Below, in pieces: positions 3,440 through 36,023 of a DNA stretch of 64,000 nt. The notes under the pieces were generated by a model. It made no database searches, had not been told where the DNA came from, and saw only the letters and a program-made list of their open reading frames with translations. Position 1 is the first letter of the stretch. Each line of letters begins with the position of its first letter. Source of the stretch: Gammaproteobacteria bacterium (GTDB taxonomy: Bacteria > Pseudomonadota > Gammaproteobacteria > Steroidobacterales > Foliamicaceae); NCBI GenBank assembly GCA_965200225.1, contig CBDATM010000001.1, positions 1,681,182-1,745,181 on the forward strand, read 5' to 3'. Both the position numbers and the translations under genes were made by a program.

Positions 3440-3463
3440 TCACTTTGCCCGACACGATGCAGC

Positions 3464-5849: not shown

Positions 5850-5863
5850 TAGCGCCAGCCACT

Positions 5864-11060: not shown

Positions 11061-11094
11061 TCGGCCGCTGGCGGGGATCAGGAAGAATCAGGCC

Positions 11095-12240
11095 GTGGAC
11101 CAATGTGAGCGGTTGGACCTTGCCGAAGAGCGTCTTGTCCGCGAGGCAAATTCGCTGGGCGCGCTGCTCGACGGTCTGCGACAGCGCTGGTCTCCCGCAC
11201 TCATCAATGACACCGAATGGGCGCGGCTGATGGAGCGGGCGCGGGCGTTTCCCGCGACCATGGCCTCCTGCCTGTTCGGGTTCGAGTTGCCGCTCCATGA
11301 CGCTCGGCCGCGAGCGGACCTGGGCGTCGGTCTCAACAGCGGGAGTCGTTCGGCTGCATCGTTCTGCGGCGCGGCGCGGCCGGAAGACGAAGACGCGGAA
11401 CCTTGCAAGAGGCGTCTGGCCGCCCTGCTGGCCACGGCGCAACAGCCGGATTCCGCTCTCTGTCGAGTCGGCGGGCGGCGACCCCATTTCATGCTGGAGT
11501 ACGACATCGGGTCGGCTCAAGGCGCCGCCCCGGACCCGGGCATCTTCTTCTACCCGATGCAGGATCGCGTGACTGCGGGCGGTCCGGCAGGCGAGTGGCC
11601 ACAGGACCTCGGGGCGGCGGCCCGCTCCGTCGCTGCGGCTGTCGGCAGACCCATGGACGACCGTGCCGGTCGCCGGATTGAGCAGCTTTGCCTGACGATG
11701 CCGCCCGGCGCATCCATTGGCTCGGTGGGGGCCTTTCCGGTGCGCGGCGCCGACGTACGGTTGGCCGTGATGGGATTCCGGCGCGCAGACAAACTTGCCG
11801 CCTTCCTCGACCGCGCCGGATGGACAGGGCAGCGCGCGGTGGTTGCCGACACGGCATCATCAATGGCGCTGCTTGGCGCCCACGGACGCGTGGGGCTCAA
11901 CATTGATGTGCTTGCCGACGGCTTGGGGGCGCGGCTGGGACTGAGCTTTTACGTCGATCCGTGGCCTTGGGCCCGCCGCCAGTGGCGCGGGCTGCTTGAT
12001 TACGCGCGCCACACCGGCTTGGCGGTTCCGGCGAAACTGGACGCGCTCGGCGATGCACTGCCACCGATGGACATGCTCTTGGGTCGCAGCGGCTCCTTTC
12101 AACTCCTGCACGGCATCCACCACGTCAAATTCGTGGTGGATGCCGAACGCATCACCGAGATCAAGGCCTATGACCTCCTGATGCTGCGTCCTTTTCTTGA
12201 CCGGGCGGCGCAGCCGCCCGGTCAAGACCCCGTGCCCTAA
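11095..12240 (+). CDS. Hypothetical protein of the RiPP locus (no family recognised)
   Basis: The ORF is open from 11038. GTG 11095 is preceded by AGGAAG with a 9-nt spacer. No motif I can assign with confidence. Its stop codon overlaps the stop of the convergent precursor A (CTAA at 12237-12240). Confidence 0.5.
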   Translation: MDQCERLDLAEERLVREANSLGALLDGLRQRWSPALINDTEWARLMERARAFPATMASCLFGFELPLHDARPRADLGVGLNSGSRSAASFCGAARPEDEDAEPCKRRLAALLATAQQPDSALCRVGGRRPHFMLEYDIGSAQGAAPDPGIFFYPMQDRVTAGGPAGEWPQDLGAAARSVAAAVGRPMDDRAGRRIEQLCLTMPPGASIGSVGAFPVRGADVRLAVMGFRRADKLAAFLDRAGWTGQRAVVADTASSMALLGAHGRVGLNIDVLADGLGARLGLSFYVDPWPWARRQWRGLLDYARHTGLAVPAKLDALGDALPPMDMLLGRSGSFQLLHGIHHVKFVVDAERITEIKAYDLLMLRPFLDRAAQPPGQDPVP

Positions 12241-12509
12241 GAGCAGCCGCTAAAATAGCTGCCGGAGACGCTCTCGAGTTGTTCCTCGTCGAGGTCGGGC
12301 AGCGGCGGCAGGGCGAGATGGGCGTTTTGCATGTCGCCCTCATGCACATGCACATTCATGCCTTCGGGCACGTCAACGCCGAATTCGCGGCTGATCACGG
12401 CCTTGGGGTCGGCCACCAACTCCGCGCGGAATTCAACGCTCTCGATTGACTTCTCGACGATCTGCTTGTAGAGATTCTCCGTCGTGGTCATCATGCTTTC
12501 GATGCTCAT
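12237..12509 (-). CDS. NHLP-leader RiPP precursor A (core YFSGCS)
   Basis: 90 aa. The NHLP-type leader is SVEFRAELVADPKAVISREFGVDVPEGMNVHVHEGDMQNAHLALPPLPDLDEEQLESVSG, followed by S-YFSGCS-stop. The RBS is AAGGAG, 8 nt before the ATG. The gene is divergent from the cyclodehydratase. Confidence 0.9.
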   Translation of the reverse strand: MSIESMMTTTENLYKQIVEKSIESVEFRAELVADPKAVISREFGVDVPEGMNVHVHEGDMQNAHLALPPLPDLDEEQLESVSGSYFSGCS

Positions 12510-12796
12510 AATTTTTCTCCTTTATTCAGTATGTCAAATAAACAAGGCTCGGATTAACAAGCGCATGTCGCTTGCCAACATGCCTCGCGCCAAACCTCTG
12601 CCGCCTATCATACTCCATTCCACTCCTCCCCCGATGCTTGGCAATATCAACAAGGATCGCGCGGCAACGTGCTGAACGCAGGCGAACGCAGCGGACACTA
12701 TGCCGGGCATGTAATTAGGTGAGATAATCGGGTTGCGAGGAACCAAGGATTGGGGCCAGCAAGCGTCGCGCGCCAGACGGCGTGGAGGAGGAACCG

Positions 12797-15118
12797 ATGC
12801 AAAGACAGGTGTCAGAGGCGGGCTGGGGCGCAGGGCGGGGGATTCTGAAGCGGACCACCGCGGCCGACCGCGGGCTTGTGGAGACGCCGTCGCTGACCCC
12901 GCACCTTGATTTCTTTGCGGTTGAAGCAGGGCGGACGCTGCTGGTTTCCGAGAGCTTCAACACGTTGATCCGCGGGCAGGTCCACCAGGACCTGCTGCCG
13001 CTGCTCGACGGCCGCTCCCGGCAGGCCGTGGCGGCCGCGCTCGCCGGCCGCCACGCGGCCGCGGACGTGGCGTCGGCGCTGGCGTCGCTGGCGTCGCGCG
13101 GCTACGTTGTCTCGGGCGACTACGCCATGGACCGGGGCCGGGCGGCGTTCTGGTCGGCGCTGGGCGCCTCGCCGCGCTGGGCGGAGCAGCGCCTGCGGAA
13201 TGCGCGGGTGGCCGCGCTCGGCGACGAAGGGCGCCTTGCCCGGCGCCTCGGGGACCTGGGGGCGCCGGCCGCCGCCGACGGCCGGACTTTGCGGGTCACG
13301 GTCTGCGGCGACTATCTGGACAGCTGTCACGCCGGCCTCAACCGGCGCCGGATCGCGTCCGGCGAGCCGTGGATGCTGCTGGCGCCGGAAGGCGGCCGTC
13401 CGCTGTTTGGGCCGGTTTTCCAGCCAGCCGGGCAAGGACCGTGCTGGGCCTGCCTCGCCCATCGCCTGCGGGGGCATCGCGAAGTTCACGAGTTCGCGCG
13501 CCGGATTGCCGGCAGCGGCTGTGTTCCGGCGCCGAAGGCGTCCGAGCCGGTCGTGGTGGAAGCGGTGTACGATCTGGCCGCCGCCGAGATCGCCAAGTGG
13601 CTGGTCTTCGACTCGCTGGCGCCGCTGCACGAGAACGTCATCTCGCTGGACGTGCTCGGCTTGCAAAGCGCGCGGCATTTTCTGGCGCGCCGCCCGCAGT
13701 GCCGCGTTTGCGGGGACGCGGCGCTGTATCGCCCCGACCGTCCGCCAGCGCCCGTGCGGCTGCGGCCAAGTCCCAAGCGCGCGCGCAGCAGCGGCGGCGC
13801 GCGCTCGGTTCCTCCTGAAGCGACCCTGGCGCGTTACCGGCATCTGATCAGCCCGGTAACCGGCGTGGTTTCCTGGCTTGAGCGGGCGACCGGCGAGACC
13901 GATCCGTGGTCGCATGTGTACTACGCCCGGGGCACCTTGGCGCCGCAGGGCGTCAGCGACCTGGGAATGCTGCGCCGCCGCCTGGGGATGACCAGCGCAG
14001 GCAAGGGCAGCACCGCGAGGCAATCCCGGGCGAGCGCCCTGGGCGAGGCGGTCGAGCGCTGCAGCGGAGTCTTTCATGGCGACGAAATCCGCTGCCGCCG
14101 CAGTTACTCGGACTTTGTGGCGGCGGGCGGGTCCGAAGCCATTCACCCCAACGAAGTGCAGTTGTTCAGCGATCGGCAGTTCGACGAACGCGAACGCCGC
14201 AACGCCGCCGCCCGGCAGCACAACCTGATTCCGGAGCGCCTCGACCCCGACGCGAAAATCGACTGGTCGCCGGTCTGGTCGCTGACGCAGGAGCGCCACC
14301 GGTACCTGCCAACGTCGCTCTTGTACTACTTCGGAGCGCCGGCGAGCGCGTTCCAGTTTCGGGCTGATTCGAACGGTTGCGCGGCGGGCAACACCCTGGA
14401 AGAGGCGATTCTCCAGGGATTCTTCGAGCTGGCGGAACGCGACGCCTTCGCGATCTGGTGGTATAACCGGTTGCGCCTGCCCGGCGTGGACCTGGAGAGC
14501 TTCGCGGACGACTTCCTGTCGTCGGCAGCGGAATACTACCGCGGCCGCCGGCGCAGCCTCTGGGCGCTGGACGCGACCAGCGACCTCGGCATTCCGGTGT
14601 TCGTCGCCCTCTCCCGGCGCGCTGATCGCAAAACGGCCGGCCACGACGAGATCATGTACGGGATAGGGGCGCACGCCGAACCGCGCATCGCGATTCTGCG
14701 CGCCGTATGCGAACTGAATCAGATGATCTCCTTTTTCGACATCAGCGCCCCCAGGAGCGATGGCCGGTGGCGGCCCTGGGACCGGCCGGTCAAGCTGGCG
14801 GACAACCCGTGGCTGACGCCGGCTCCCGGCGTCGCCCTGCGCGGCCGCTGGGATCACGCCGTTGCCGCCGAAGATGACGCGCGGGAAGACATTGAGCGCT
14901 GCCGGGCGCTGGTCGAAGCCAAGGGGCTGGAGTTGCTGGTCCTCGACCAGACCCGGCCCGACATCGGCATGCCGGTGGCGCGGGTCATTGTGCCCGGCCT
15001 CCGTCACTTCTGGCGGCGGTTAGCGCCGGGCCGCCTGTACGATGTGCCGGTCAGGACGGGGCAGCGCCCCGCCCCGAGCTCGGAGGGCGATCTCAACCCC
15101 CTTCCGGTCCTGGTCTGA
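12797..15118 (+). CDS. Fused TOMM cyclodehydratase, copy 1 (E1/ThiF-like SagC-type N-terminus + YcaO/SagD domain)
   Basis: The ORF is open from 12782. ATG 12797 follows GGAGGAGGAA. The N-terminal half shows GPCWACLAHRLRGHREVHEF and RRPQCRVCGD. The YcaO half shows SAGKGSTARQSRASALGEAVERCSG and NGCAAGNTLEEAILQGFFELAERDAFAIWWYN. Confidence 0.9.
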   Translation: MQRQVSEAGWGAGRGILKRTTAADRGLVETPSLTPHLDFFAVEAGRTLLVSESFNTLIRGQVHQDLLPLLDGRSRQAVAAALAGRHAAADVASALASLASRGYVVSGDYAMDRGRAAFWSALGASPRWAEQRLRNARVAALGDEGRLARRLGDLGAPAAADGRTLRVTVCGDYLDSCHAGLNRRRIASGEPWMLLAPEGGRPLFGPVFQPAGQGPCWACLAHRLRGHREVHEFARRIAGSGCVPAPKASEPVVVEAVYDLAAAEIAKWLVFDSLAPLHENVISLDVLGLQSARHFLARRPQCRVCGDAALYRPDRPPAPVRLRPSPKRARSSGGARSVPPEATLARYRHLISPVTGVVSWLERATGETDPWSHVYYARGTLAPQGVSDLGMLRRRLGMTSAGKGSTARQSRASALGEAVERCSGVFHGDEIRCRRSYSDFVAAGGSEAIHPNEVQLFSDRQFDERERRNAAARQHNLIPERLDPDAKIDWSPVWSLTQERHRYLPTSLLYYFGAPASAFQFRADSNGCAAGNTLEEAILQGFFELAERDAFAIWWYNRLRLPGVDLESFADDFLSSAAEYYRGRRRSLWALDATSDLGIPVFVALSRRADRKTAGHDEIMYGIGAHAEPRIAILRAVCELNQMISFFDISAPRSDGRWRPWDRPVKLADNPWLTPAPGVALRGRWDHAVAAEDDAREDIERCRALVEAKGLELLVLDQTRPDIGMPVARVIVPGLRHFWRRLAPGRLYDVPVRTGQRPAPSSEGDLNPLPVLV

Positions 15119-15132
15119 AGGACGTTCTGCCG

Positions 15133-16515
15133 ATGCCCCTCAGCGACCTGCTTCACGAGCCGTCAATCCATGTTCGCACATGGGGCCGATCGGCGATCAG
15201 CCATTCTCGCTACAGCTCCTCGTTCGTAGGCTCGATCCGGAATAACCCGGTGCGGCTGGGTCCGTACGGCCGCGATTTCGAGGCGGCCCACAACCTGCTT
15301 GTGGCGGGCGCACCGCTTGCCGAACTCCACGCTGCCGTCGTCGAGGGGGGCAGCGTGGAGCGCGCCGCCGAGTACCTGGTTTGGCTGGAGCGGTTCAATC
15401 GGTTCGGGGGCATTGAGTTCCCGCTGGTCGACGAGACGGGCGAACGCGCCGTCATCCTCCCGCAGCAGGACACGTTCGTGCCTACCATGGCGCCGGACGC
15501 TCCGGCCGCCAGTACCTCGCTCGAACGCTTTGCCTTTTTGCGGCGCGGGAACGACGCGTGGCTGCTGGAGTCGCCCCTGGTTGGCGCGCAAGTTCAGCTT
15601 GTCGACCTCGCCGCGCTTGATAGCGATGTCGTCCGTCGCGCGCTTAACGGGATGGGCTTTCTCGATGCGGCCCGGCCGGACAGCGATGCGCGTCGTATTG
15701 CGCTCGCCCAGTGGGAGTTCCACGATCTGCTGTTCCACACCCGTGAGCGGCGCGGGTGGAATCGTGAACCGGCTGGCGCCGCGTTCCCGTTCATCGACCA
15801 GATCGAGCCGCTGCCTGCAGTGCGGCCGGCCTGGCCCGGCAAGCGCATCGCCCTGCCTCGCGCTCCGGATGCCGTCGCGGGGGAGCCCTTCGCGGCGGTG
15901 CTCGCACGGCGTTGCTCCGAGCGGGCGTACGATGCAGCCCACCCGATCACGCTGGCCGATCTCGGCGCGCTGCTCGACCGCGCCGCGCGCATCCGCTCGT
16001 CCATGGCGCATCCGGTACGCGACATCAAGGGTCGAACCGCCGAATTCGAAATCACTTTTCGTCCCTATCCTACGGGCGGCGCGAGCCACGAGCTGGAGAT
16101 CTATCCGATTGTGGACTTTTGCGTCGGACTCAAATCCGGTTGCTATCACTACGATGCGTCCGCCCACGAGTTGGTGCGGATCTCGGAGCGTACCCGGGAG
16201 ATCGACAAACTTCTGCGGTTTGCGCGGAGCGCAACGGCTGATCTGGCCCGGCCGCAGATTCTGCTGGGCGTAACGGCGCGCTTCGCTCGCGTCATGTGGA
16301 AGTACCGGGCGTTCTGTTACGCCATGATCCTGCGCGACACCGGGGCACTCTACCAGACGCTGTATCTCGCAGCCACCGAACTCGGCTTGTCGCCTTGCGC
16401 CATCGGCAGCGGCAACAGCCTCCTGTTCTCGCAAGTCACCGGTCTCGACCCGCTGATCGAGGGCAATGTCGGCGAGTTCATTCTCGGCGGCCGACCTGCA
16501 GCGTCCGCATCCTGA
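15133..16515 (+). CDS. SagB-type FMN-dependent azoline dehydrogenase, copy 1
   Basis: 460 aa. The nitroreductase-fold C-terminal half shows RRCSERAYD...FRPYPTGGASHELEIYP...LYLAATELGLSPCAIGSG. It starts 14 nt after the cyclodehydratase stop. Confidence 0.9.
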   Translation: MPLSDLLHEPSIHVRTWGRSAISHSRYSSSFVGSIRNNPVRLGPYGRDFEAAHNLLVAGAPLAELHAAVVEGGSVERAAEYLVWLERFNRFGGIEFPLVDETGERAVILPQQDTFVPTMAPDAPAASTSLERFAFLRRGNDAWLLESPLVGAQVQLVDLAALDSDVVRRALNGMGFLDAARPDSDARRIALAQWEFHDLLFHTRERRGWNREPAGAAFPFIDQIEPLPAVRPAWPGKRIALPRAPDAVAGEPFAAVLARRCSERAYDAAHPITLADLGALLDRAARIRSSMAHPVRDIKGRTAEFEITFRPYPTGGASHELEIYPIVDFCVGLKSGCYHYDASAHELVRISERTREIDKLLRFARSATADLARPQILLGVTARFARVMWKYRAFCYAMILRDTGALYQTLYLAATELGLSPCAIGSGNSLLFSQVTGLDPLIEGNVGEFILGGRPAASAS

Positions 16516-16604
16516 CACGCGGAACTGCCCGCAGAGCCGCAAGGATTCCAGGTTGCGGGCATTTCTACCTTGCGTTGACACTTCCCCCCGCAACCCGTAC
16601 AAAA

Positions 16605-16641
16605 ATCCGGCGGCCAACGCAAACGCTGCGGGCCGCCGGAT
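16605..16641. terminator. GC-rich hairpin, bidirectional terminator-like (copy 1 of a duplicated element)
   Basis: Perfect 11-bp stem ATCCGGCGGCC (16605-16615) / GGCCGCCGGAT (16631-16641). An A5 run lies on the left and TGATTT on the right. Confidence 0.6.
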
Positions 16642-16666
16642 TGATTTGGGAGTTGAAATAGGCGGA

Positions 16667-16713
16667 TTAGAACGCCGGCCGCCAAGTTGCCCGGAAGTAG
16701 TAGAAGCCGCCAT
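16667..16713 (-). pseudogene. 47-bp relic of the 3' end of the TonB-dependent receptor gene
   Basis: Identical to 21335-21381 (stop codon plus the last 15 codons of the receptor). Homology stops abruptly at 16713/16714. Confidence 0.85.
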
Positions 16714-16875
16714 ATTGTGCCCGGCCTCCGTCACTTCTGGCGGCGGTTAGCGCCGGGCCGCCTGTACGATGTGCCGGTCAGGACGGGGCAGCGCCCCGCC
16801 CCGAACTCGGAGGGCGATCTCAACCCCCTTCCGGTCCTGATCTGAAGGACGGCCTCCCGATAGCCTTCAGCGACC
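16714..16875 (+). pseudogene. 162-bp relic of the cyclodehydratase 3' end plus the sagB 5' end
   Basis: Colinear with 14987-15148. The first ~135 nt have 2 mismatches. The last ~25 nt (intergenic spacer and the first sagB codons) have 6 mismatches. There is no upstream coding context. Confidence 0.85.
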
Positions 16876-16901
16876 GATGAGAAACGCCCTGATTCTGCGA
16901 T

Positions 16902-17177
16902 CTAGCAGGAGCCGCAATGAATATAGCCGCCGGAGACGCTCTCGAGTTGTTCCTCGTCGAGGTCGGGCAGCGGCGGCAGGGCGAGATGGGCGTTTTGCAT
17001 GTCGCCCTCATGCACATGCACATTCATGCCTTCGGGCACGTCAACGCCGAATTCGCGGCTGATCACGGCCTTGGGGTCGGCCACCAACTCCGCGCGGAAT
17101 TCAACGCTCTCGATTGACTTCTCGACGATCTGCTTGTAGAGATTCTCCGTCGTGGTCATCATGCTTTCGATGCTCAT
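16902..17177 (-). CDS. NHLP-leader RiPP precursor B (core YIHCGSC)
   Basis: 91 aa. The leader is identical to precursor A up to LESVSG, followed by G-YIHCGSC-stop. Confidence 0.9.
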   Translation of the reverse strand: MSIESMMTTTENLYKQIVEKSIESVEFRAELVADPKAVISREFGVDVPEGMNVHVHEGDMQNAHLALPPLPDLDEEQLESVSGGYIHCGSC

Positions 17178-17464
17178 AATTTTTCTCCTTTATTCAGTAT
17201 GTCAAATAAACAAGGCTCGGATTAACAAGCGCATGTCGCTTGCCAACATGCCTCGCGCCAAACCTCTGCCGCCTATCATACTCCATTCCACTCCTCCCCC
17301 GATGCTTGGCAATATCAACAAGGATCGCGCGGCAACGTGCTGAACGCAGGCGAACGCAGCGGACACTATGCCGGGCATGTAATTAGGTGAGATAATCGGG
17401 TTGCGAGGAACCAAGGATTGGGGCCAGCAAGCGTCGCGCGCCAGACGGCGTGGAGGAGGAACCG

Positions 17465-19786
17465 ATGCAAAGACAGGTGTCAGAGGCGGGCTGGGGCGCA
17501 GGGCGGGGGATTCTGAAGCGGACCACCGCGGCCGACCGCGGGCTTGTGGAGACGCCGTCGCTGACCCCGCACCTTGATTTCTTTGCGGTTGAAGCAGGGC
17601 GGACGCTGCTGGTTTCCGAGAGCTTCAACACGTTGATCCGCGGGCAGGTCCACCAGGACCTGCTGCCGCTGCTCGACGGCCGCTCCCGGCAGGCCGTGGC
17701 GGCCGCGCTCGCCGGCCGCCACGCGGCCGCGGACGTGGCGTCGGCGCTGGCGTCGCTGGCGTCGCGCGGCTACGTTGTCTCGGGCGACTACGCCATGGAC
17801 CGGGGCCGGGCGGCGTTCTGGTCGGCGCTGGGCGCCTCGCCGCGCTGGGCGGAACAGCGCCTGCGGAATGCGCGGGTGGCCGCGCTCGGCGACGAAGGGC
17901 GCCTTGCCCGGCGCCTCGGGGACCTGGGGGCGCCGGCCGCCGCCGACGGCCGGACTTTGCGGGTCACGGTCTGCGGCGACTATCTGGACAGCTGTCACGC
18001 CGGCCTCAACCGGCGCCGGATCGCGTCCGGCGAGCCGTGGATGCTGCTGGCGCCGGAAGGCGGCCGTCCGCTGTTTGGGCCGGTTTTCCAGCCAGCCGGG
18101 CAAGGACCGTGCTGGGCCTGCCTCGCCCATCGCCTGCGGGGGCATCGCGAAGTTCACGAGTTCGCGCGCCGGATTGCCGGCAGCGGCTGTGTTCCGGCGC
18201 CGAAGGCGTCCGAGCCGGTCGTGGTGGAAGCGGTGTACGATCTGGCCGCCGCCGAGATCGCCAAGTGGCTGGTCTTCGACTCGCTGGCGCCGCTGCACGA
18301 GAACGTCATCTCGCTGGACGTGCTCGGCTTGCAAAGCGCGCGGCATTTTCTGGCGCGCCGCCCGCAGTGCCGCGTTTGCGGGGACGCGGCGCTGTATCGC
18401 CCCGACCGTCCGCCGGCGCCCGTGCGGCTGCGGCCAAGTCCCAAGCGCGCGCGCAGCAGCGGCGGCGCGCGCTCGGTTCCTCCTGAAGCGACCCTGGCGC
18501 GTTACCGGCATCTGATCAGCCCGGTAACCGGCGTGGTTTCCTGGCTTGAGCGGGCGACCGGCGAGACCGATCCGTGGTCGCATGTGTACTACGCCCGGGG
18601 CACCTTGGCGCCGCAGGGCGTCAGCGACCTGGGAATGCTGCGCCGCCTCCTGGGGATGATCAGCGCAGGCAAGGGCAGCACCGCGAGGCAATCCCGGGCG
18701 AGCGCCCTGGGCGAGGCGGTCGAGCGCTGCAGCGGAGTCTTTCATGGCGACGAAATCCGCTGCCGCCGCAGTTACTCGGACTTTGTGGCGGCGGGCGGGT
18801 CCGAAGCCATTCACCCCAACGAAGTGCAGTTGTTCAGCGATCGGCAGTTCGACGAACGCGAACGCCGCAACGCCGCCGCCCGGCAGCACAACCTGATTCC
18901 GGAGCGCCTCGACCCCGACGCGAAAATCGACTGGTCGCCGGTCTGGTCGCTGACGCAGGAGCGCCACCGGTACCTGCCAACGTCGCTCTTGTACTACTAC
19001 ACAGCGTCAGAGAGCGCGTCTCATTTTCAGGCCGATCCCAACGGTTGCGCGGCGGGCAACACCCTGGAAGAGGCGATTCTCCAGGGATTCTTCGAGCTGG
19101 CGGAACGCGACGCCTTCGCGATCTGGTGGTATAACCGGTTGCGCCTGCCCGGCGTGGACCTGGAGAGCTTCGCGGACGACTTCCTGTCGTCGGCAGCGGA
19201 ATACTACCGCGGCCGCCGGCGCAGCCTCTGGGCGCTGGACGCGACCAGCGACCTCGGCATTCCGGTGTTCGTCGCCCTCTCCCGGCGCGCTGATCGCAAA
19301 ACGGCCGGCCACGACGAGATCATGTACGGGATAGGGGCGCACGCCGAACCGCGCATCGCGATTCTGCGCGCCGTATGCGAACTGAATCAGATGATCTCCT
19401 TTTTCGACATCAGCGCCCCCAGGAGCGATGGCCGGTGGCGGCCCTGGGACCGGCCGGTCAAGCTGGCGGACAACCCGTGGCTGACGCCGGCTCCCGGCGT
19501 CGCCCTGCGCGGCCGCTGGGATCACGCCGTTGCCGCCGAAGATGACGCGCGGGAAGACATTGAGCGCTGCCGGGCGCTGGTCGAAGCCAAGGGGCTGGAG
19601 TTGCTGGTCCTCGACCAGACCCGGCCCGACATCGGCATGCCGGTGGCGCGGGTCATTGTGCCCGGCCTCCGTCACTTCTGGCGGCGGTTAGCGCCGGGCC
19701 GCCTGTACGATGTGCCGGTCAGGACGGGGCAGCGCCCCGCCCCGAGCTCGGAGGGCGATCTCAACCCCCTTCCGGTCCTGGTCTGA
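17465..19786 (+). CDS. Fused TOMM cyclodehydratase, copy 2
   Basis: Offset by exactly 4,668 bp from copy 1. The protein is identical except RRRLGMT>RRLLGMI and the patch FGAPASAFQFRADS>YTASESASHFQADP. Confidence 0.9.
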   Translation: MQRQVSEAGWGAGRGILKRTTAADRGLVETPSLTPHLDFFAVEAGRTLLVSESFNTLIRGQVHQDLLPLLDGRSRQAVAAALAGRHAAADVASALASLASRGYVVSGDYAMDRGRAAFWSALGASPRWAEQRLRNARVAALGDEGRLARRLGDLGAPAAADGRTLRVTVCGDYLDSCHAGLNRRRIASGEPWMLLAPEGGRPLFGPVFQPAGQGPCWACLAHRLRGHREVHEFARRIAGSGCVPAPKASEPVVVEAVYDLAAAEIAKWLVFDSLAPLHENVISLDVLGLQSARHFLARRPQCRVCGDAALYRPDRPPAPVRLRPSPKRARSSGGARSVPPEATLARYRHLISPVTGVVSWLERATGETDPWSHVYYARGTLAPQGVSDLGMLRRLLGMISAGKGSTARQSRASALGEAVERCSGVFHGDEIRCRRSYSDFVAAGGSEAIHPNEVQLFSDRQFDERERRNAAARQHNLIPERLDPDAKIDWSPVWSLTQERHRYLPTSLLYYYTASESASHFQADPNGCAAGNTLEEAILQGFFELAERDAFAIWWYNRLRLPGVDLESFADDFLSSAAEYYRGRRRSLWALDATSDLGIPVFVALSRRADRKTAGHDEIMYGIGAHAEPRIAILRAVCELNQMISFFDISAPRSDGRWRPWDRPVKLADNPWLTPAPGVALRGRWDHAVAAEDDAREDIERCRALVEAKGLELLVLDQTRPDIGMPVARVIVPGLRHFWRRLAPGRLYDVPVRTGQRPAPSSEGDLNPLPVLV

Positions 19787-19800
19787 AGGACGTTCTGCCG

Positions 19801-21183
19801 ATGCCCCTCAGCGACCTGCTTCACGAGCCGTCAATCCATGTTCGCACATGGGGCCGATCGGCGATCAGCCATTCTCGCTACAGCTCCTCGTTCGTAGGCT
19901 CGATCCGGAATAACCCGGTGCGGCTGGGTCCGTACGGCCGCGATTTCGAGGCGGCCCACAACCTGCTTGTGGCGGGCGCACCGCTTGCCGAACTCCACGC
20001 TGCCGTCGTCGAGGGGGGCAGCGTGGAGCGCGCCGCCGAGTACCTGGTTTGGCTGGAGCGGTTCAATCGGTTCGGGGGCATTGAGTTCCCGCTGGTCGAC
20101 GAGACGGGCGAACGCGCCGTCATCCTCCCGCAGCAGGACACGTTCGTGCCTACCATGGCGCCGGACGCTCCGGCCGCCAGTACCTCGCTCGAACGCTTTG
20201 CCTTTTTGCGGCGCGGGAACGACGCGTGGCTGCTGGAGTCGCCCCTGGTTGGCGCGCAAGTTCAGCTTGTCGACCTCGCCGCGCTTGATAGCGATGTCGT
20301 CCGTCGCGCGCTTAACGGGATGGGCTTTCTCGATGCGGCCCGGCCGGACAGCGATGCGCGTCGTATTGCGCTCGCCCAGTGGGAGTTCCACGATCTGCTG
20401 TTCCACACCCGTGAGCGGCGCGGGTGGAATCGTGAACCGGCTGGCGCCGCGTTCCCGTTCATCGACCAGATCGAGCCGCTGCCTGCAGTGCGGCCGGCCT
20501 GGCCCGGCAAGCGCATCGCCCTGCCTCGCGCTCCGGATGCCGTCGCGGGGGAGCCCTTCGCGGCGGTGCTCGCACGGCGTTGCTCCGAGCGGGCGTACGA
20601 TGCAGCCCACCCGATCACGCTGGCCGATCTCGGCGCGCTGCTCGACCGCGCCGCGCGCATCCGCTCGTCCATGGCGCATCCGGTACGCGACATCAAGGGT
20701 CGAACCGCCGAATTCGAAATCACTTTTCGTCCCTATCCTACGGGCGGCGCGAGCCACGAGCTGGATATCTATCCGATTGTGGACTTTTGCGTCGGACTCA
20801 AATCCGGTTGCTATCACTACGATGCGTCCGCCCACGAGTTGGTGCGGATCTCGGAGCGTACCCGGGAGATCGACAAACTTCTGCGGTTTGCGCGGAGCGC
20901 AACGGCTGATCTGGCCCGGCCGCAGATTCTGCTGGGCGTAACGGCGCGCTTCGCTCGCGTCATGTGGAAGTACCGGGCGTTCTGTTACGCCATGATCCTG
21001 CGCGACACCGGGGCACTCTACCAGACGCTGTATCTCGCAGCCACCGAACTCGGCTTGTCGCCTTGCGCCATCGGCAGCGGCAACAGCCTCCTGTTCTCGC
21101 AATTCACCGGTCTCGACCCGCTGATCGAGGGCAATGTCGGCGAGTTCATTCTCGGCGGCCGACCTGCAGCGTCCGCATCCTGA
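19801..21183 (+). CDS. SagB-type dehydrogenase, copy 2
   Basis: Offset by 4,668 bp from copy 1. There are two substitutions (ELEIYP>ELDIYP, SQVTGL>SQFTGL). Confidence 0.9.
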   Translation: MPLSDLLHEPSIHVRTWGRSAISHSRYSSSFVGSIRNNPVRLGPYGRDFEAAHNLLVAGAPLAELHAAVVEGGSVERAAEYLVWLERFNRFGGIEFPLVDETGERAVILPQQDTFVPTMAPDAPAASTSLERFAFLRRGNDAWLLESPLVGAQVQLVDLAALDSDVVRRALNGMGFLDAARPDSDARRIALAQWEFHDLLFHTRERRGWNREPAGAAFPFIDQIEPLPAVRPAWPGKRIALPRAPDAVAGEPFAAVLARRCSERAYDAAHPITLADLGALLDRAARIRSSMAHPVRDIKGRTAEFEITFRPYPTGGASHELDIYPIVDFCVGLKSGCYHYDASAHELVRISERTREIDKLLRFARSATADLARPQILLGVTARFARVMWKYRAFCYAMILRDTGALYQTLYLAATELGLSPCAIGSGNSLLFSQFTGLDPLIEGNVGEFILGGRPAASAS

Positions 21184-21272
21184 CACGCGGAACTGCCCGC
21201 AGAGCCGCAAGGATTCCAGGTTGCGGGCATTTCTACCTTGCGTTGACACTTCCCCCCGCAACCCGTACAAAA

Positions 21273-21309
21273 ATCCGGCGGCCAACGCAAACGCTGCGGG
21301 CCGCCGGAT
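21273..21309. terminator. Bidirectional hairpin between sagB-2 and the convergent TonB receptor
   Basis: Same 11-bp stem as 16605-16641. On the minus strand the hairpin is followed by TTTTTGT. Confidence 0.65.
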
Positions 21310-21334
21310 TGATTTGGGAGTTGAAATAGGCGGA

Positions 21335-23899
21335 TTAGAACGCCGGCCGCCAAGTTGCCCGGAAGTAGTAGAAGCCGCCATTAAACCCGAACGGCGATTG
21401 CTCCGGGTAGATCAGACCGGCTACTTCGCCGTTGGGGTTGGTGCTGGGGTACTCGTCAAAGGCGTTTTGCAGGCCCACCAGAAGCGAGAGGGATTCGTTC
21501 ACTTCGTAAGACACCTCCAGATCGACCAGAACGCTCGGATCCGGCTCGAACGCTACCGAACCGTCGTTGGTGGGAGCATCGTAGTAGGCCCCGTAATACC
21601 GCGCACGCGCCATGAAGCGCCACGGCCCCATCAAGTGCGTCCAGGTTCCCGTCAGGCGGAAATCCGGGCGCCCTTCTTCGATTTGCCGCCGACGGTTTTC
21701 CGACGTGAAGTCGGGGTTGTACTTGGTGAGATCAATATTCGACCAGTTACCCACCACGGTGATGTTGGAAGAACCGCTACCCAGGTCAAACGGCCAGCTG
21801 GCGACCAGATCGATGCCGGAGGCCTCCACGGTCTGCAGATTCGAGAAGAATCGCACCGAGGTAAAGCTGCTTGCGTCGGACACGCCGGCAGCCAGCAATG
21901 TCTGAATGTCGGATTCGGTAAGAGTGAAGCGACTGGTGAAGGAGATCCGGTCCTCAATCTCGATGTTGTAATAGTCCAGCGTTACGTTCAGGTCACCGGT
22001 AGTAAACACTAGGCCCAGGGTTACGTTCACCGACTCCTCGGGGGTTAGGGGCTGGGCACCCTTCTGCTGCGCCACCGGATTGGTGGGCGGCAAGGTGGCG
22101 ATGTCGGCCAAGGCCCCCATGTTGAACTCCGTGGTTACATTGCGCAGGTTCGCCTGCCCCGAAGTGGGAACCCGAAAGCCGGTGCTCACTGCGCCGCGTA
22201 CCGCTACCGCGTCGGAAATCTGGAAGCGCGCCGCCAGCTTTCCATCCAGGGTGTCGCCGAACTCCGAATAATTCTCGAATCGCACGGCGGCGCCCAGCAG
22301 CAACTGCTCGCTTACGTTCGACTCAAGGTCAACATAGGCGGCGTAAGCGCTGATCGTGCTCTCGCCGGCATCGCCCGGCTGGAATCCGGGAAATCCGTTG
22401 GAGCCAACGCCAAAGCCCTGCGAGGCCAGACCGTATTCGAGGTTGGGATCGATATAGAAAGAGTTGGGATCGCCGTTTTCGATCTTGAAGGTTTCATCAC
22501 GAGCTTCCAGTCCCATGGCCACATTCACCGGTTCCGACATGCCGATATCCAGCGGTTTGGACAGATCAATGTTGACCACCCGGTCGATTTCCGTATAGGC
22601 GCCGGCGTTGTAGTAGACGGGAATGTCATTGCGCAGCGCCAGCAATTGCGGGTTGATCGTGTTGTAGATGTAGAACTGGGCATAGCTGCGCCCGGCTGTC
22701 ACGCTGAGGTCATAGAACCAACCGTTGTCCATTTCGCCGCGCAGCCCGCCCGCCGCTGCCAGATCATGAATATAGCCGCCGAACTGAGGAGTGAATCCGC
22801 CGGGGAATTTTTCGATCAGCGAATAGCAGTTCGGGTCGGTGCGAATGGCAGCCAGAGCGGCGGCATCCGGCACGTTGTTCACGATCCGCACCACCGGGCA
22901 GTTGCCGGTTCCGTCGCCGGAGAGATCCGCCACCTTGACCGTGGACGTTCCGTCGGGCAACACCGGCCCCTTGAACACGCCGCCTCGAGTGTGCGGATTC
23001 CGAAAGTAGAAGCCGCCTTCCACCTGGCGCTTGGACCAGTTTCCGAAAGCGTAGAACTCCTGACTGTTGCTCATATCCGCTCCGAGATTGGCCATGAACT
23101 TGAAATCGTCGGAAATTTCCGGAGCGCCCCAGATCTGCGCCGGAACGCGCACATGGGTATTGCCTGCGTCAATCAGCGCTTGAGCATCTGCGCGCTGCGC
23201 GCTGCGGCTGGTGGGGTCGGACTCCTTCCATTCGAAGCTCAGGTTGGCGAAGCCGCGATCGGTAAGCGGCAGGCCCAGGTTGCCGGCCAGTGTCAATGCG
23301 TCTCCGTCTCCCTCGAAGTGCGTGCCCCACTTGGCGTCCAGGACTGCGCCTTCGGCATCCTCCTTCAATACGAAATTCATGATGCCGGCAATGGCGTCGG
23401 AGCCGTATTGCGCCGATGCGCCGTCGCGCAGCACCTCAAGCCGGTCCAGGGCGATGGCGGGAATGGCGGACAGGTCAGGGCCTTGCGAACCGCCGGATAT
23501 GCCTGCGCCCAGCAGCGCGATAACCGCCGCACGGTGCCGCCGCTTTCCATTCACCAGCACCAGCGTGGCGTCCGGCGGGAGCGAGCGAAGAGTGGCCGGA
23601 CGCACCAGCGTGGCCGCGTCGCTGATCGGTTCCTGGCTGACGCCATAGGAAGGAACCAGCGCGGAAATCAGGTTGTCCATGTCGGAATCGCCATGGGCGA
23701 GGAACTCGTCCCCGCCGATCACGTCCACCGGCACCGGCGAGTCGGCCGCCGAGCGGTCGCGGCGCCTGGAGCCTACAACCACGATTTCTTCCAGGGCTTC
23801 GGCGGATTGCTGGCTCTGGGAAAGCGCAGGCGCGGCTGGGATTGTTGCGAGAACAAGAACAATCGGCAGGGTGGCTAATCTATTTATATTGAAAAACAT
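21335..23899 (-). CDS. TonB-dependent outer-membrane receptor
   Basis: 854 aa with a signal peptide (MFFNINRLATLPIVLVLATIPAAPALS). The plug domain shows EEIVVVGSRRR...DSPVPVDVI...LEVLRDGASAQYGSDAIAGIMNFVLK. The C-terminus is YFRATWRPAF, ending in a terminal Phe. Confidence 0.9.
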   Translation of the reverse strand: MFFNINRLATLPIVLVLATIPAAPALSQSQQSAEALEEIVVVGSRRRDRSAADSPVPVDVIGGDEFLAHGDSDMDNLISALVPSYGVSQEPISDAATLVRPATLRSLPPDATLVLVNGKRRHRAAVIALLGAGISGGSQGPDLSAIPAIALDRLEVLRDGASAQYGSDAIAGIMNFVLKEDAEGAVLDAKWGTHFEGDGDALTLAGNLGLPLTDRGFANLSFEWKESDPTSRSAQRADAQALIDAGNTHVRVPAQIWGAPEISDDFKFMANLGADMSNSQEFYAFGNWSKRQVEGGFYFRNPHTRGGVFKGPVLPDGTSTVKVADLSGDGTGNCPVVRIVNNVPDAAALAAIRTDPNCYSLIEKFPGGFTPQFGGYIHDLAAAGGLRGEMDNGWFYDLSVTAGRSYAQFYIYNTINPQLLALRNDIPVYYNAGAYTEIDRVVNIDLSKPLDIGMSEPVNVAMGLEARDETFKIENGDPNSFYIDPNLEYGLASQGFGVGSNGFPGFQPGDAGESTISAYAAYVDLESNVSEQLLLGAAVRFENYSEFGDTLDGKLAARFQISDAVAVRGAVSTGFRVPTSGQANLRNVTTEFNMGALADIATLPPTNPVAQQKGAQPLTPEESVNVTLGLVFTTGDLNVTLDYYNIEIEDRISFTSRFTLTESDIQTLLAAGVSDASSFTSVRFFSNLQTVEASGIDLVASWPFDLGSGSSNITVVGNWSNIDLTKYNPDFTSENRRRQIEEGRPDFRLTGTWTHLMGPWRFMARARYYGAYYDAPTNDGSVAFEPDPSVLVDLEVSYEVNESLSLLVGLQNAFDEYPSTNPNGEVAGLIYPEQSPFGFNGGFYYFRATWRPAF

Positions 23900-23966
23900 G
23901 AGTCGTTCTCCGATTTCGAAGTAATGGGAATAAAGCCAACTTCCATGAAAGGCACATAGATAAGGG

Positions 23967-23996
23967 AAAAAAATTATAGCCGCAAATATATGCGGC
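23967..23996 (-). terminator. Rho-independent terminator of the CDF gene
   Basis: The minus-strand reading is GCCGCA-TATATT-TGCGGC followed by TATAATTTTTTT. The stem is at 23979-23984 / 23991-23996 and the A-run on the plus strand at 23967-23973. Confidence 0.7.
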
Positions 23997-24014
23997 TTGG
24001 GCTGTCAGAGTCTG

Positions 24015-25022
24015 TCAGCCCGCGCTGGGGCTGCTGAAGTGGTGATTTTCGGTGCAGCCGTTGTGCGAGTGTTCCAACTGAATGGTGATGTGATGGATGT
24101 TGAAATCGCGGCAAACGATTTCCCGCAGTTGCGCCAGCAGCGAATCGAACGGGCTGCCGTAACCCGGCTCCACCGACACATGCGCAGTCAATGCGTCGTT
24201 GCCGGGTGAAAGGGTCCACACATGAATGTCATGCACCCGCCCCACGCCGTCCACCGCTTCCATTCGCCTGCCCAGATCGTGGACATCCACATGGTCCGGC
24301 ACGCCTTCCAGCAGCACGTGAATCACCTTGGTCAGCAGCCGACAGGTGCTCGCCAGGATCAGGCCGCCCACCAGTATGCTCACGATGGGATCGGCCAGAT
24401 TCCATCCGAACCCCCACACCAGGGCGCCGGAAACGATCACGCTTGCCGACCCTGCCAGGTCGGCGAGGATGTGCATGAAGGCGGCCTGCACGTTCACATT
24501 GTGCTTCGCCGAACCGTGCAGGATCCGGGCGGCCGCCAGATTCACCAGCAGGCCGATCAGGCCGATGGCCAGCACGGTCAGCCCCTGCACCTCGGTGGGG
24601 TTGGAAAAGCGCTCGATCGCTTCGCGAATCACCCCGCCGGCGATCAGCCACAGAAACAGCACGTTCAGCAGCGCCGCAAGGATTTCGAGGCGGTAATAAC
24701 CGTAGGTCCGCCGCGCCGTGTGGGCCTTGCGTGAAAGAACCATGGCGCCCAGCGCCAGCCCGATGGCCGCGCCATCGGCCAGCATATGCCCCGCGTCGGC
24801 CAGCAGCGCCAGACTGCCGGAGAGGATGCCGCCCGCCACCTCGACCAGCATGAAGCCCAAGATCAAGACCAGGGCGATTGTCAGGCTCTTGCGGCTGGCG
24901 GAGTGCAGTGCTTCCGAATGGTCGTGCGCGTGATGCTCGTGGTGCTCGCGATGCTGGTGATGTTCGCGATGCTGCTGGTGCTCGCGATGCTCGTGGTGCG
25001 CGTTTCGAACTGTGCGGGACAC
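24015..25022 (-). CDS. Cation diffusion facilitator (CzcD/ZitB-like Zn/Co/Cd efflux protein) with His-rich N-terminus
   Basis: This is the C-terminal 335 codons of the composite ORF 24015..25742. GTG 25022 is preceded by GGAAGG. The N-terminus is VSRTVRNAHHEHREHQQHREHHQHREHHEHHAHDH. CDF motifs present: SGSLALLADAGHMLADG, FMHILADLAGS and VHDIHVWTLSPG. Confidence 0.8.
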   Translation of the reverse strand: MSRTVRNAHHEHREHQQHREHHQHREHHEHHAHDHSEALHSASRKSLTIALVLILGFMLVEVAGGILSGSLALLADAGHMLADGAAIGLALGAMVLSRKAHTARRTYGYYRLEILAALLNVLFLWLIAGGVIREAIERFSNPTEVQGLTVLAIGLIGLLVNLAAARILHGSAKHNVNVQAAFMHILADLAGSASVIVSGALVWGFGWNLADPIVSILVGGLILASTCRLLTKVIHVLLEGVPDHVDVHDLGRRMEAVDGVGRVHDIHVWTLSPGNDALTAHVSVEPGYGSPFDSLLAQLREIVCRDFNIHHITIQLEHSHNGCTENHHFSSPSAG

Positions 25023-25027
25023 AGGCG

Positions 25028-25825
25028 TCAACCCTTCCTGCCTCGCAAGGCCGATCCCGCGTAGGAGAGGGCGAACAGCAGCGCTGCCAGCGTCACGATG
25101 GTCGGGCCGGTGGGAGTGTCCCAGTACCAGGATGCCGTCAGACCGGCAACCACCGAGACCGTTCCCAGCAGCGCCGCGCTTACCGCCATGGTCTCCGGCG
25201 TGCGCGAGAACGGGCGCGCCGCTGCCGCGGGAATAATCAGCATGGCGGTAATCAGCAGGGCGCCGATCACCTTGATGGACACCGCCACCACGATCGCCAG
25301 CGCCGCCATCAGGATCAGTTGTTCCCGTTTCGGGGAAATGCCCGAGCCGTGAGCCAGCGCAGCGCTGAGTGTTGTCGTAAGCAGCGCTTCCCAGCGCCAC
25401 GCCAGCAGACCCAGCACCAGCGCCGCGCCTCCCCAGATCACGGCGAGATCGCCGCGGGTAACGGCCAGCAACTCGCCGAACAGCCAGGCTTCCACATTGA
25501 CCGCCCGCGGCGCTGCCAGCGATACCGCCACCAGGCCGATAGCCAGGCCGGCATGGGACGCCACGCCGAGCAGGGTGTCCATGGCGAAGCCGCGTCCCGC
25601 GAGCGAAGATACGCCCACCGCCACTGCCGCGGCCACTACCAGCACCCCCAGCATGAGGGATACCTGGAAAACCAGCGCCAGAGCGATACCCAGAATTGCC
25701 GCGTGGGCAGTTGCATCGCCGAAGTAAGCAATGCGGCGCCACACCACGAAACAGCCGAGCGGGCCGGCGGCGAGCGCCACGCCGATGCCGGCAAGACAGG
25801 CCCGAACCAGAAAGTCGTCGAGCAT
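25028..25825 (-). CDS. znuB: Zinc ABC transporter permease
   Basis: The start is at the internal Met (MLDDFLVRACLAGIGVALAAGPLGCFVVWRRIAYFGDATAHAAILG). Its ATG overlaps the znuC stop (TAATG). Confidence 0.85.
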   Translation of the reverse strand: MLDDFLVRACLAGIGVALAAGPLGCFVVWRRIAYFGDATAHAAILGIALALVFQVSLMLGVLVVAAAVAVGVSSLAGRGFAMDTLLGVASHAGLAIGLVAVSLAAPRAVNVEAWLFGELLAVTRGDLAVIWGGAALVLGLLAWRWEALLTTTLSAALAHGSGISPKREQLILMAALAIVVAVSIKVIGALLITAMLIIPAAAARPFSRTPETMAVSAALLGTVSVVAGLTASWYWDTPTGPTIVTLAALLFALSYAGSALRGRKG

Positions 25826-26547: not shown

Positions 26548-26621
26548 GAAGCGGAATGATAGGGGAAACGCCGGGTGATACTATCCGTGCTTCCTGCTTA
26601 CGGTTCTCTGTCAGATTCTCC

Positions 26622-27563: not shown

Positions 27564-27566
27564 GCC

Positions 27567-27615: not shown

Positions 27616-27633
27616 CTGATTCTCTATCAGTTC

Positions 27634-36005: not shown

Positions 36006-36023
36006 AGGCGGAAGGCGAGAAGA

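Follow-up and report, generated by a model that had tools for sequence, protein, structure and literature searches.

Tandem precursor/heterocyclase/oxidase cassettes in a gammaproteobacterial genome are near-identical apart from the peptide cores and one heterocyclase loop

Introduction

The srp clusters pair a SrpE precursor with a YcaO heterocyclase, SrpC (Nguyen et al., 2021, cited here after PMC10858898, PMC10286304 and bioRxiv 10.1101/2023.06.09.544420), and an LCCCW-type core is the hallmark of these sponge-derived proteusin clusters, proteusin leaders being laid out with an LxxxxL motif four residues ahead of a GG-type boundary (PMC10858898). Here we analyze an srp-like locus in a 64,000-nt stretch of a gammaproteobacterial genome (contig CBDATM010000001.1, positions 1,681,182 to 1,745,181; the whole stretch is hereafter the window), in which a cassette for a peptide precursor, a heterocyclase and an azoline oxidase is present twice in tandem. 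The locus resembles the srp clusters in its NHLP leader with LxxxxL and a GG-type boundary, its very short, Cys-rich core at the C-terminus, its fused RRE-YcaO heterocyclase (~60% identical), its paired NHLM-type ABC exporters and a conserved neighbor of ~372-381 aa. It differs from them in that its cores, YFSGCS and YIHCGSC, are not LCCCW and lack the canonical C-terminal Trp, and in that no SrpI-type flavin-dependent brominase was found among the 30 open reading frames (ORFs) of the window scanned for protein families (those at 1834-12240, 21335-39752 and 53248-61961). Further differences are that an azoline oxidase is present and that the heterocyclase/oxidase pair is duplicated, unlike in relatives. 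From the ~60% identity to heterocyclases encoded beside LCCCW precursors we infer that the window locus lies in a wider srp-like family.

Other described systems resemble the locus in other respects. In the mpr system MprC and MprD act on the precursors MprE1-E10 (PMC12455567), and there, too, an NHLP leader goes together with a YcaO enzyme and a flavin mononucleotide (FMN) oxidase that make thiazoles, and with several precursors that have different cores; however, one promiscuous enzyme pair serves ten precursors, whereas here a near-identical pair lies beside each of two. The Prochloron pat and tru pathways (PMC3062557) share with our locus a LynD/TruD/PatD-type heterocyclase, a ThcOx-type oxidase and a producer that is a symbiont of marine invertebrates, and they diverge only over a stretch of core codons shorter than 30 bp, in DNA that is more than 99% identical, with crossover scars within the pathway. 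The Prochloron variants, however, are alleles between strains with identical enzymes, whereas here we find tandem paralogues in one genome and a hypervariable enzyme loop in addition; unlike a cyanobactin pathway, moreover, the locus has an NHLP leader and a C39 exporter, and neither PatA/PatG proteases nor a macrocyclase were found in the scanned ORFs. In two-component lanthipeptides such as haloduracin and lichenicidin, LanA1/LanM1 and LanA2/LanM2 provide one dedicated enzyme per precursor in one cluster. The likeness lies in this dedicated modification enzyme for each precursor of a cluster, but the chemistry and the enzyme family are different and the lanthipeptide pairs are anciently diverged, with different leaders, instead of being 99.6% identical. 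The tufA/tufB genes and the rRNA operons, for their part, undergo concerted evolution by RecA-dependent gene conversion, which leaves near-identical tracts with islands of difference. Here, in contrast, the repeats are adjacent and direct, the islands coincide with substrate-related sequence, and conversion is a process that we infer.

A hypervariable core within identical DNA, with recombination scars, is already known from Prochloron, and the locus is not a new kind of system. What is new is that the hypervariable-core pattern occurs between tandem paralogues of one genome, that the repeat includes the enzymes, and that an enzyme loop is hypervariable too.

Results

Two cassettes in tandem

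When repeat unit 1 (12263-16713) is compared without gaps to repeat unit 2 (16931-21381) at an offset of 4668, all 4451 bases pair with 19 mismatches and no indels, and just beyond either unit the identity is at background (0.2-0.35). Six of the 19 differences are isolated (13186 G/A, 13747 A/G, 13980 G/T, 13992 C/T, 16098 G/T and 16435 G/T). The remaining 13 all fall within a single 41-nt patch of the heterocyclase gene (14331-14371, with its twin at 18999-19039), a clustering (at least 13 of 19 differences in any 41-nt window) that has a probability of ~4e-19. Outside the patch the units differ by 0.13%. We conclude that the two-copy array is real, and that each copy consists of the leader part of a precursor gene, a divergent control region, a heterocyclase gene, an oxidase gene and a terminator (Table 1).

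An original prediction, made by a model that read the letters of this stretch, had named exactly the six isolated substitutions that the ungapped comparison recovered and had described the units as colinear, which they are, without a gap, over 4451 nt. Its account of the cassette as precursor, cyclodehydratase and dehydrogenase is borne out by profile and structure-database matches, and the differences are extremely concentrated, as it had proposed, and not spread evenly. Other parts of the prediction need amendment. Core and YcaO patch are both heavily diverged, as it said, but the core-region codons, which are read from the minus strand (12240-12260 and 16905-16928), fall just outside the units that it delimited; and although its tandem period of 4,668 bp holds as an offset, the 217 nt that separate the units (16714-16930) have no counterpart at 12046-12262.

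The joint between the units holds a relic of an older copy

In a simple head-to-tail duplication, which the original prediction had supposed, a single novel joint would be seen; here there are two, at 16713/16714 and 16875/16876, and this part of the prediction has to be abandoned. The 217-nt spacer starts with a 162-nt relic of the heterocyclase/oxidase junction, and unit 1 ends, directly before it, in a 47-nt copy of the 3' end of a gene for a TonB-dependent receptor. With an older-copy relic and a fragment of a neighboring gene at the joint, at least two rounds of rearrangement are required. An intact receptor gene follows unit 2 only, and it would therefore be from the surroundings of unit 2 that the right end of unit 1 was copied. 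Where the receptor fragment meets the relic both parents read CATT and the joint reads CAT-AT-TGTG, which looks typical of illegitimate, microhomology-associated joining.

The relic is 95% identical to the corresponding segments of both units (14987-15148 and 19655-19816), and the start codon of its oxidase has been changed from ATG to ATA. Of the eight differences of the relic, at least four are sites where it has in the alignment the base of one or both of two related loci, L081 and L082, and the units share the other base: the relic retains the ancestral states ATC TGA (stop), CTCCCG (spacer) and GCC TTC (Ala-Phe, oxidase residues 2-3), and the units have the derived states GTC, CTGCCG and CCC CTC (Pro-Leu). 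Because the relic keeps the outgroup bases where the units share derived ones, the units would coalesce well after the relic split off. The unit lineage appears to have gained ~2.5% change over the 162 nt after this split and before the last common ancestor of the units, which points to at least two duplication rounds, well separated in time, with the older copy mostly overwritten or deleted. For the order of events at the two joints we obtained no single unambiguous scheme, as each scheme tried needs at least one extra homogenizing step. Two were rejected on this ground, a 4668-bp tandem duplication reaching from the relic to the receptor fragment and followed by a leader-to-leader deletion, and a 1727-bp duplication followed by a Campbell-type insertion via the 162-nt homology.

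The closest relative, L081, whose heterocyclase is N-terminally truncated, is also rearranged at this place. It has a perfect tandem duplication (76 nt x 2) across the heterocyclase stop and oxidase start (11720-11871), a second, inverted version of 419 nt from the heterocyclase 3' end, 92% identical (9564-9982 vs 11292-11710), and, additionally, precursor fragments. L081 and the relic share their breakpoint region, and breakage at the heterocyclase/oxidase junction would seem to be recurrent.

The joint also bears on the question of whether a single-copy cassette, present as two strain variants, was wrongly assembled in tandem, which we regard as very improbable. The source contig is metagenome-derived, the contig names of related records suggest that these were assembled from long-read metagenomes, and precursor 2 and the joint-spanning ORF are without a record in independent assemblies. 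In exact look-ups precursor 1 was the sole queried item recovered in an independent assembly, and nothing usable was returned for either heterocyclase, for oxidase 1, for precursor 2 or for the joint-spanning ORF. Yet the joint has sequence that is absent from either unit: it has a relic with ancestral bases of its own, a destroyed start codon and the receptor-fragment/relic junction, for which separate reads would be required, and such an artefact is unlikely because an assembler could not invent these bases and this junction from two single-copy haplotypes. Assembly, furthermore, normally collapses near-identical repeats instead of expanding them. The left boundary (400-aa gene, core 1 and leader) is reproduced by a short-read contig of independent origin (Logan SRR33991082, 1076 nt) that is 100% identical to window positions 11478-12553, and in the public protein data both enzyme variants are on record from one 2.57-Mb contig.

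The patch and the core are probably much older than the DNA around them, or foreign to it

By Nei-Gojobori counts, the patch (codons 517-530, with 13 of 41 nt different and an amino-acid change in 8 of 14 codons) has 4.0 synonymous steps over 9.8 sites and 9.0 non-synonymous steps over 32.2 sites, that is, proportions of synonymous (pS) and non-synonymous (pN) differences of 0.41 and 0.28. The two cores differ by six substitutions and the indel of one codon, with an amino-acid change in five of the seven aligned codons, and when they are aligned with one codon gap their pS is 0.24 and their pN 0.30. In all other coding sequence of heterocyclase, oxidase and leader there are two synonymous changes over 1019 sites and four non-synonymous ones, and in the non-coding sequence there is no difference in 470 nt. 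The silent excess of the patches over the rest is highly significant (Fisher p = 4e-9). As silent divergence is more than 100-fold higher in patch and core, we take these segments to be old or foreign, and not new mutations under selection. With these pS values and the 5% divergence of the relic, one alignment has segments of significantly different ages, a pattern to be expected of gene conversion or concerted evolution between paralogues.

The silent changes speak against one of the readings in the original prediction, a recent duplication followed by point mutation and by positive selection focused on core and loop. We find this hard to credit: although most codons of the loop and the aligned core have changed their amino acid and the loop is among the more variable regions of the family, selection for replacements leaves silent changes unraised, pN/pS in the patch is ~0.7, and even a loop that evolves 9-fold faster, as between the related heterocyclases P0064 and P0119 (see below), predicts less than one difference at a background of 0.13%. 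The same prediction had allowed for a recent duplication with imported variant patches, and import survives. Targeted hypermutation by a diversity-generating retroelement or a similar device, to which a short hypervariable stretch in otherwise identical repeats could be ascribed, is scarcely conceivable; one copy has an A at only 5 of the 13 differences, the substitution types are mixed, neither a reverse transcriptase nor a template repeat was found in the scanned ORFs and the cluster region, and the window has no second copy of the patch. We also rejected a frameshift pair and an inversion as the origin of the patch, as shifted and reverse-complement comparisons were poorer than the in-register alignment.

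Neither version of the patch is the ancestral one. Both differ from the outgroup codons; residue 513 of the 773-residue numbering (518 in the 778 scheme) is encoded by GGA and ACA, each one step from the outgroup AGA. Derived states are found in copy 1 at 512 and 516 and in copy 2 at 519, 520 and 525. With change on both sides, two lineages that separated long ago are a better fit than a single import, though import may still account for the pattern.

Precursors and enzymes of the two cassettes

The precursor ORFs have 90 and 91 residues and each is preceded by a ribosome-binding site. Their NHLP leader scores 66.6 bits against TIGR03793 (cut-off 50.9) and 29.4 against Pfam NHase_alpha (threshold 27.2). 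We split leader and core by the rule in PMC10858898. Precursor 2 then reads LDEEQL-ESVS-GG followed by YIHCGSC, with LxxxxL at -12 to -7 and a double-glycine boundary, and in precursor 1 GS replaces GG. Because the two leaders are 100% identical, either heterocyclase should bind either precursor. The original prediction had each precursor variant traveling with its own enzyme pair, and this is correct as physical adjacency, but with identical leaders the pairing is by adjacency only. The control region, too, is without a difference between the units (12510-12781). The promoter-like hexamers that the promoter/terminator scan found on both of its strands are consensus matches only, to which we give no weight. 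That scan made no call on the hairpin behind the oxidase gene, the loop of which is too long for it.

The heterocyclase matches LynD (4V1T) with E = 2e-161 and aligns over its full length to TruD and MusD also. It scores 323 bits against Pfam YcaO, 258 against TIGR03604 (cut-off 219) and 148.7 against TIGR03882 (cut-off 36.9), and has the fused YcaO domain and E1-like/RRE partner that are expected of an azol(in)e-forming cluster. The oxidase scores 154.9 bits against TIGR03605 (cut-off 78.4) and is an FMN-dependent azoline dehydrogenase of the SagB type. Both copies of the two enzymes have kept full-length reading frames.

The two heterocyclases are 98.7% identical, and eight of their ten amino-acid differences are in one loop, encoded by the patch, that corresponds to LynD 516-529 and leads from a beta strand to the DSNG turn, at which the long ATP/Mg-binding helix starts. 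In the AlphaFold2 model pLDDT is below 50 across nearly the whole loop (507-520 and 522-526, 773-residue numbering). Within the family the mean entropy is 1.48 in the loop and 0.86 overall, and the patch is bracketed by the strongly conserved motifs RYLPTSLLYY and NGCAAGNTLEEA. The last residue of the patch (S530) is Ser in 118 of 119 homologues and Thr in one, and is Pro in heterocyclase 2. Copy 1 has kept DSNG and the ExxER helices, whereas copy 2 reads DPNG. S530 aligns to Thr148 of McbD in a gapless motif, D-[ST]-x-G-C ... L..AI ... E..E (McbD numbering checked on PDB 6GOS); this position is Ser or Thr in the YcaO enzymes of RiPPs (ribosomally made peptides with post-translational modifications), and the McbD exchange T148A strongly slows processing (PMC6395948).

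The few isolated changes are distributed unequally over the copies. Both synonymous ones are derived in copy 1 (GAG and CCA, where the outgroups have GAA and CCG). Derived in copy 2 are R400L and T404I of the heterocyclase and E322D of the oxidase, V435F of the oxidase being unpolarized. Copy 1 behaves as if under purifying selection and copy 2 as if under relaxed or directional selection (p about 0.07), and because copy 2 has three derived replacements and Pro at the Ser of the catalytic turn, it would seem that its activity is being lost or is being adapted to core 2. G-to-T transversions make up three of the four isolated replacements between the copies (13980, 16098 and 16435), a sample too small to interpret.

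Related loci

Species-representative genomes have 345 relatives of the heterocyclase, the best 80 of which are about 56-71% identical. These relatives are overwhelmingly from sponge-associated metagenome-assembled genomes (MAGs) of many phyla. A scan of JGI metagenome contigs gave 55 further loci, the best at 63% identity, and no second strain or allele of the window locus. The closest relative of the window heterocyclase, that of L081, is only 79% identical. The precursors of the related loci mostly end in LCCCW-like cores, with 25 of them ending in the exact 8-mer SAGLCCCW and several having other LCCC-type cores. The window locus falls in a small side branch with L001, L081 and L082, in which the oxidase is present and the cores are other short ones (such as VAGNCW, GNMGCW, GRWGFCG and GVFASGCC).

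An azoline oxidase is encoded in only 12 of the 139 related loci and two full heterocyclase genes within 10 kb in none of them. A comparison of cassette numbers with relatives, as the original prediction had proposed, gives the result that not one of the 139 duplicates the enzymes. Precursors are duplicated, however: L001 has three tandem precursor genes (14690-16671) with ~99% identical leaders and flanks and the hypervariable cores VAGNCW, GNMGCW and GRWGFCG, and one heterocyclase/oxidase pair for all three. Precursor duplication and core hypervariability are therefore normal in the family, and enzyme duplication is not. The loop varies elsewhere as well. The heterocyclases P0064 (L084, 10001-12286) and P0119 (L085, 6194-8479) are 97% identical, and 6 of their 20 differences are in the loop (512-521, 773-aa numbering), which suggests that the family as a whole has a hot spot in this loop.

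Neighboring genes and the rest of the window

The features of the locus and its surroundings are given in Table 1. The C39 exporter, which is predicted to cleave after the GG/GS boundary and to export the peptide, scores 846.6 bits against TIGR03796, below the cut-off of 853.3, and the second exporter 658 bits against TIGR03797, also below the cut-off (709).

Table 1. Positions of the features of the duplicated locus and of its neighbors in the window
Feature	Position	Strand	Remarks
Probable HlyD-type membrane-fusion protein	4956-5849	+	left edge of the cluster, directly upstream of the exporters; HlyD_D23 22 bits, below cut-off
Peptidase-C39 ABC exporter (NHLM_micro_ABC1 type)	5864-8062	+	Pfam Peptidase_C39, ABC_membrane and ABC_tran
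Second ABC exporter subunit (NHLM_micro_ABC2 type)	8046-11060	+	Pfam ABC_tran and ABC_membrane
Conserved 400-aa protein	11038-12240	+	predicted ABBA prenyltransferase-like fold; stop overlaps precursor 1 stop
Precursor 1	12237-12509	-	NHLP leader, LDEEQL, boundary ..VSGS, core YFSGCS, core codons 12240-12257
Repeat unit 1	12263-16713		4451 nt; ungapped match to 16931-21381, 19 mismatches
Divergent intergenic/regulatory region	12510-12796		precursor 1 to heterocyclase 1; identical in both units
Heterocyclase 1 (P0121)	12797-15118	+	773 aa; fused E1-like/RRE and YcaO, LynD/TruD type
Hot patch, version 1	14331-14371	+	codons 517-530, FGAPASAFQFRADS; loop into the DSNG catalytic turn
Azoline oxidase 1	15133-16515	+	460 aa; SagB/ThcOx type, FMN-dependent; Pfam ThcOx and Nitroreductase
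GC-rich hairpin CCGGCGGCC..GGCCGCCGG	16607-16639, twin 21275-21307		probable terminator, oxidase to TonB-receptor gene; sequence inspection
Copy of TonB-receptor 3' end (47 nt)	16667-16713	-	stop and last ~15 codons; identical to 21335-21381
Relic	16714-16875	+	162 nt; last 44 heterocyclase codons, 14-nt spacer, first 16 nt of oxidase
Unique 26 nt	16876-16901		between relic and precursor 2 stop; no match elsewhere in the window
Precursor 2	16902-17177	-	same leader, boundary ..VSGG, core YIHCGSC, core codons 16905-16925
Repeat unit 2	16931-21381		4451 nt; ungapped twin of unit 1
Heterocyclase 2 (P0001)	17465-19786	+	derived R400L, T404I and S530P, and patch version 2
Hot patch, version 2	18999-19039	+	YTASESASHFQADP; final residue Pro instead of Ser
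Azoline oxidase 2	19801-21183	+	E322D derived; V435F polarity uncertain
Intact TonB-dependent receptor	21335-23899	-	854 aa; Pfam Plug and TonB_dep_Rec_b-barrel; right boundary of the duplication 47 nt inside

The conserved 400-aa protein encoded before precursor 1 has no match in Pfam, NCBIfam or the sequences of the PDB. Its AlphaFold2 model (pLDDT 89.6, pTM 0.89) gave 50 PDB matches listed by Foldseek, all of them aromatic or peptide prenyltransferases (DMATS1, CymD, NphB/Orf2, PagF and DciF included), with probabilities of 0.97-1.00 and a TM of about 0.35-0.55. The predicted fold is prenyltransferase-like and not that of a halogenase, and no halogenase family was matched in the 30 ORFs scanned; there was no match to Peptidase_S8 or PatG among them either. 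Homologues of this protein (~372-381 aa) adjoin the heterocyclase in most of the related loci (L001-L140), and we found no mention of a prenyltransferase in the srp literature that we searched. Judging by the modeled fold, the peptides of sponge symbionts may be prenylated, on Tyr or Trp of the core, and by way of this neighbor the peptide family might receive one more modification, which has not been reported so far.

Several other features of the window were observed in passing. Cassette 2 is followed by a zinc-type neighborhood (21335-30330) of a TonB receptor, a cation-efflux protein, ZnuA and a second TonB receptor, and the cation-efflux protein has a His-rich N-terminus encoded by 9-nt repeats (24919-25008). 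Three paralogous small genes on the minus strand (54087-54476, 57015-57404 and 60457-61140) encode coiled-coil proteins with a hydrophobic C-terminal tail. The DNA around each of them is repeated (88-93% identity), the third contains a run of nine tandem repeats of 33 nt (KATKADVEQLG, 60587-60982), and KAP NTPase, AAA/DUF4143 and DUF5131 genes lie among them. There is also a perfect 46-nt inverted repeat (44853-44898 and 44951-44996) with a 52-nt spacer. An Rfam scan of the window found two tRNAs only, far from the locus.

Discussion

How did two cassettes come to be almost the same and yet so different at two short places? We think that the array probably arose by repeated duplicative recombination, and that core and loop are deeper or foreign mosaic segments that recombination or conversion did not erase, or through which they were imported. 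An older heterocyclase/oxidase copy would once have lain between unit 1 and precursor 2, and only its 162-nt junction would have survived. A later copy of cassette 2, reaching 47 nt into the TonB-receptor gene, would then have been placed beside the relic at the CATT joint, and the units would since have been kept, or made, about 99.9% identical, with the core codons and the 14-codon heterocyclase loop as mosaic segments either not erased or imported. The core, situated at the very edge of the homology, would be shielded from conversion automatically, and the loop between its conserved motifs would form a mismatch-dense island of a kind that can block or escape conversion. The original prediction had offered ongoing gene conversion that spares the specificity determinants as a second reading; homogenization survives from it, beside import, and the words "specificity determinants" are unproven.

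Several observations weigh against this history or some part of it. We found no donor or third paralogue for either patch, or for the core, in the window and 82 related loci (a short-word BLAST gave self matches only), and no patch donor among the 119 best homologues; a 65-aa query around patch 2 gave three candidates, none with the patch, in what was an uninformative protein search. To the left and to the right of the patch the isolated differences have a similar density (4 in 2068 nt vs 2 in 2342 nt), to which one recent event is no worse a fit than long-term conversion. Most synonymous steps of the patch fall in codons that also have an amino-acid change, and two of the codon changes are adjacent double substitutions; the patch may conceivably stem from a single complex mutational event. 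The asymmetry between the copies comes down to only five or six substitutions (p about 0.07). Finally, the P0064 and P0119 loci both encode an LCCCL core despite the variation of their loops.

The even density on both sides is also what would be left by a different course of events, a single, very recent duplication and then the short-tract import of a diverged loop and a different core from an unsampled homologue, for instance a co-resident srp-type cluster of a sponge symbiont. The patch flanks are equally young on either side, the motifs that enclose the patch are shared with distant homologues down to the nucleotides (with exact 15-nt matches to L001, L024 and L082 just to its right), homologous clusters exist in many phyla of sponge-associated MAGs, and Prochloron pathways show such cassette swaps and recombination scars (PMC3062557). 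We nevertheless consider this course rather unlikely: no donor was found in the window, the 82 loci or the 119 homologues, both patch versions and not just one depart from the outgroups, and the relic is an older copy that was already at the spot, so that a single recent duplication is insufficient.

If the working steps of the pathway are taken from the known families, control regions of the same sequence would drive the expression of both precursors, whose identical leaders would dock with LDEEQL on the RRE of either heterocyclase, and the YcaO domain would use ATP to cyclodehydrate Cys and Ser in the cores of 6-7 residues. The oxidase would convert the azolines to azoles, and the C39 exporter would cut after GG/GS and secrete the product. 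What the loop contributes to this is a separate question. One proposal is that the 14-residue loop determines core selectivity, and that loop 1 with YFSGCS and loop 2, including its Ser-to-Pro change, with YIHCGSC are kept matched by selection against homogenizing recombination. In its favor, the loop ends on the catalytic turn and is the sole strongly diverged segment of the enzyme, and SrpC is reported to be strictly substrate-selective (PMC10286304), which provides a rationale for a dedicated enzyme per core; MprC, on the other hand, is promiscuous, with ten substrates (PMC12455567). Against it, the loops of P0064 and P0119 vary with the same core, which argues against co-variation of loop and core, and the Pro that replaces the catalytic Ser may do no more than damage the enzyme. 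On balance we hold the proposal to be doubtful.

A neutral or dosage-only duplication, with copy 2 decaying and the loop no more than a tolerant surface loop, is possible and somewhat easier to accept, though it still falls short of being probable; it is compatible with the mosaic history. Copy 2 has Pro where all 119 homologues have Ser or Thr, at the position where the McbD mutant T148A is severely slowed (PMC6395948), and R400L, T404I and E322D, the latter in the conserved ELEIY motif, are all derived in this copy. The low model confidence of the loop and its variation without a change of core in P0064/P0119 point the same way, and identical leaders let one enzyme serve both precursors, as in L001 and with MprC (PMC12455567). 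Decay sits less well with the full-length reading frames of both copies, with the strict selectivity reported for SrpC (PMC10286304) and with the instability of 4.45-kb direct repeats, the persistence of which suggests either selection or extreme recency.

Conclusions

How YcaO enzymes choose residues and cores is poorly understood, as leader binding explains recruitment and not selectivity. The window locus is a natural experiment on this selectivity, with the same leader, different cores and enzymes that differ mainly in one loop. If copy 2 is inactive, it is an ordinary young duplicate on its way out. If, however, loop and core do form matched pairs, the locus would be a natural loop swap which shows that a strictly selective heterocyclase was retuned to a new core. 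The locus also records the diversification of clusters in symbionts, by repeated duplication of a cassette, overwriting and mosaic retention, and the pattern of core hypervariability known from Prochloron is extended here from precursors to an enzyme.

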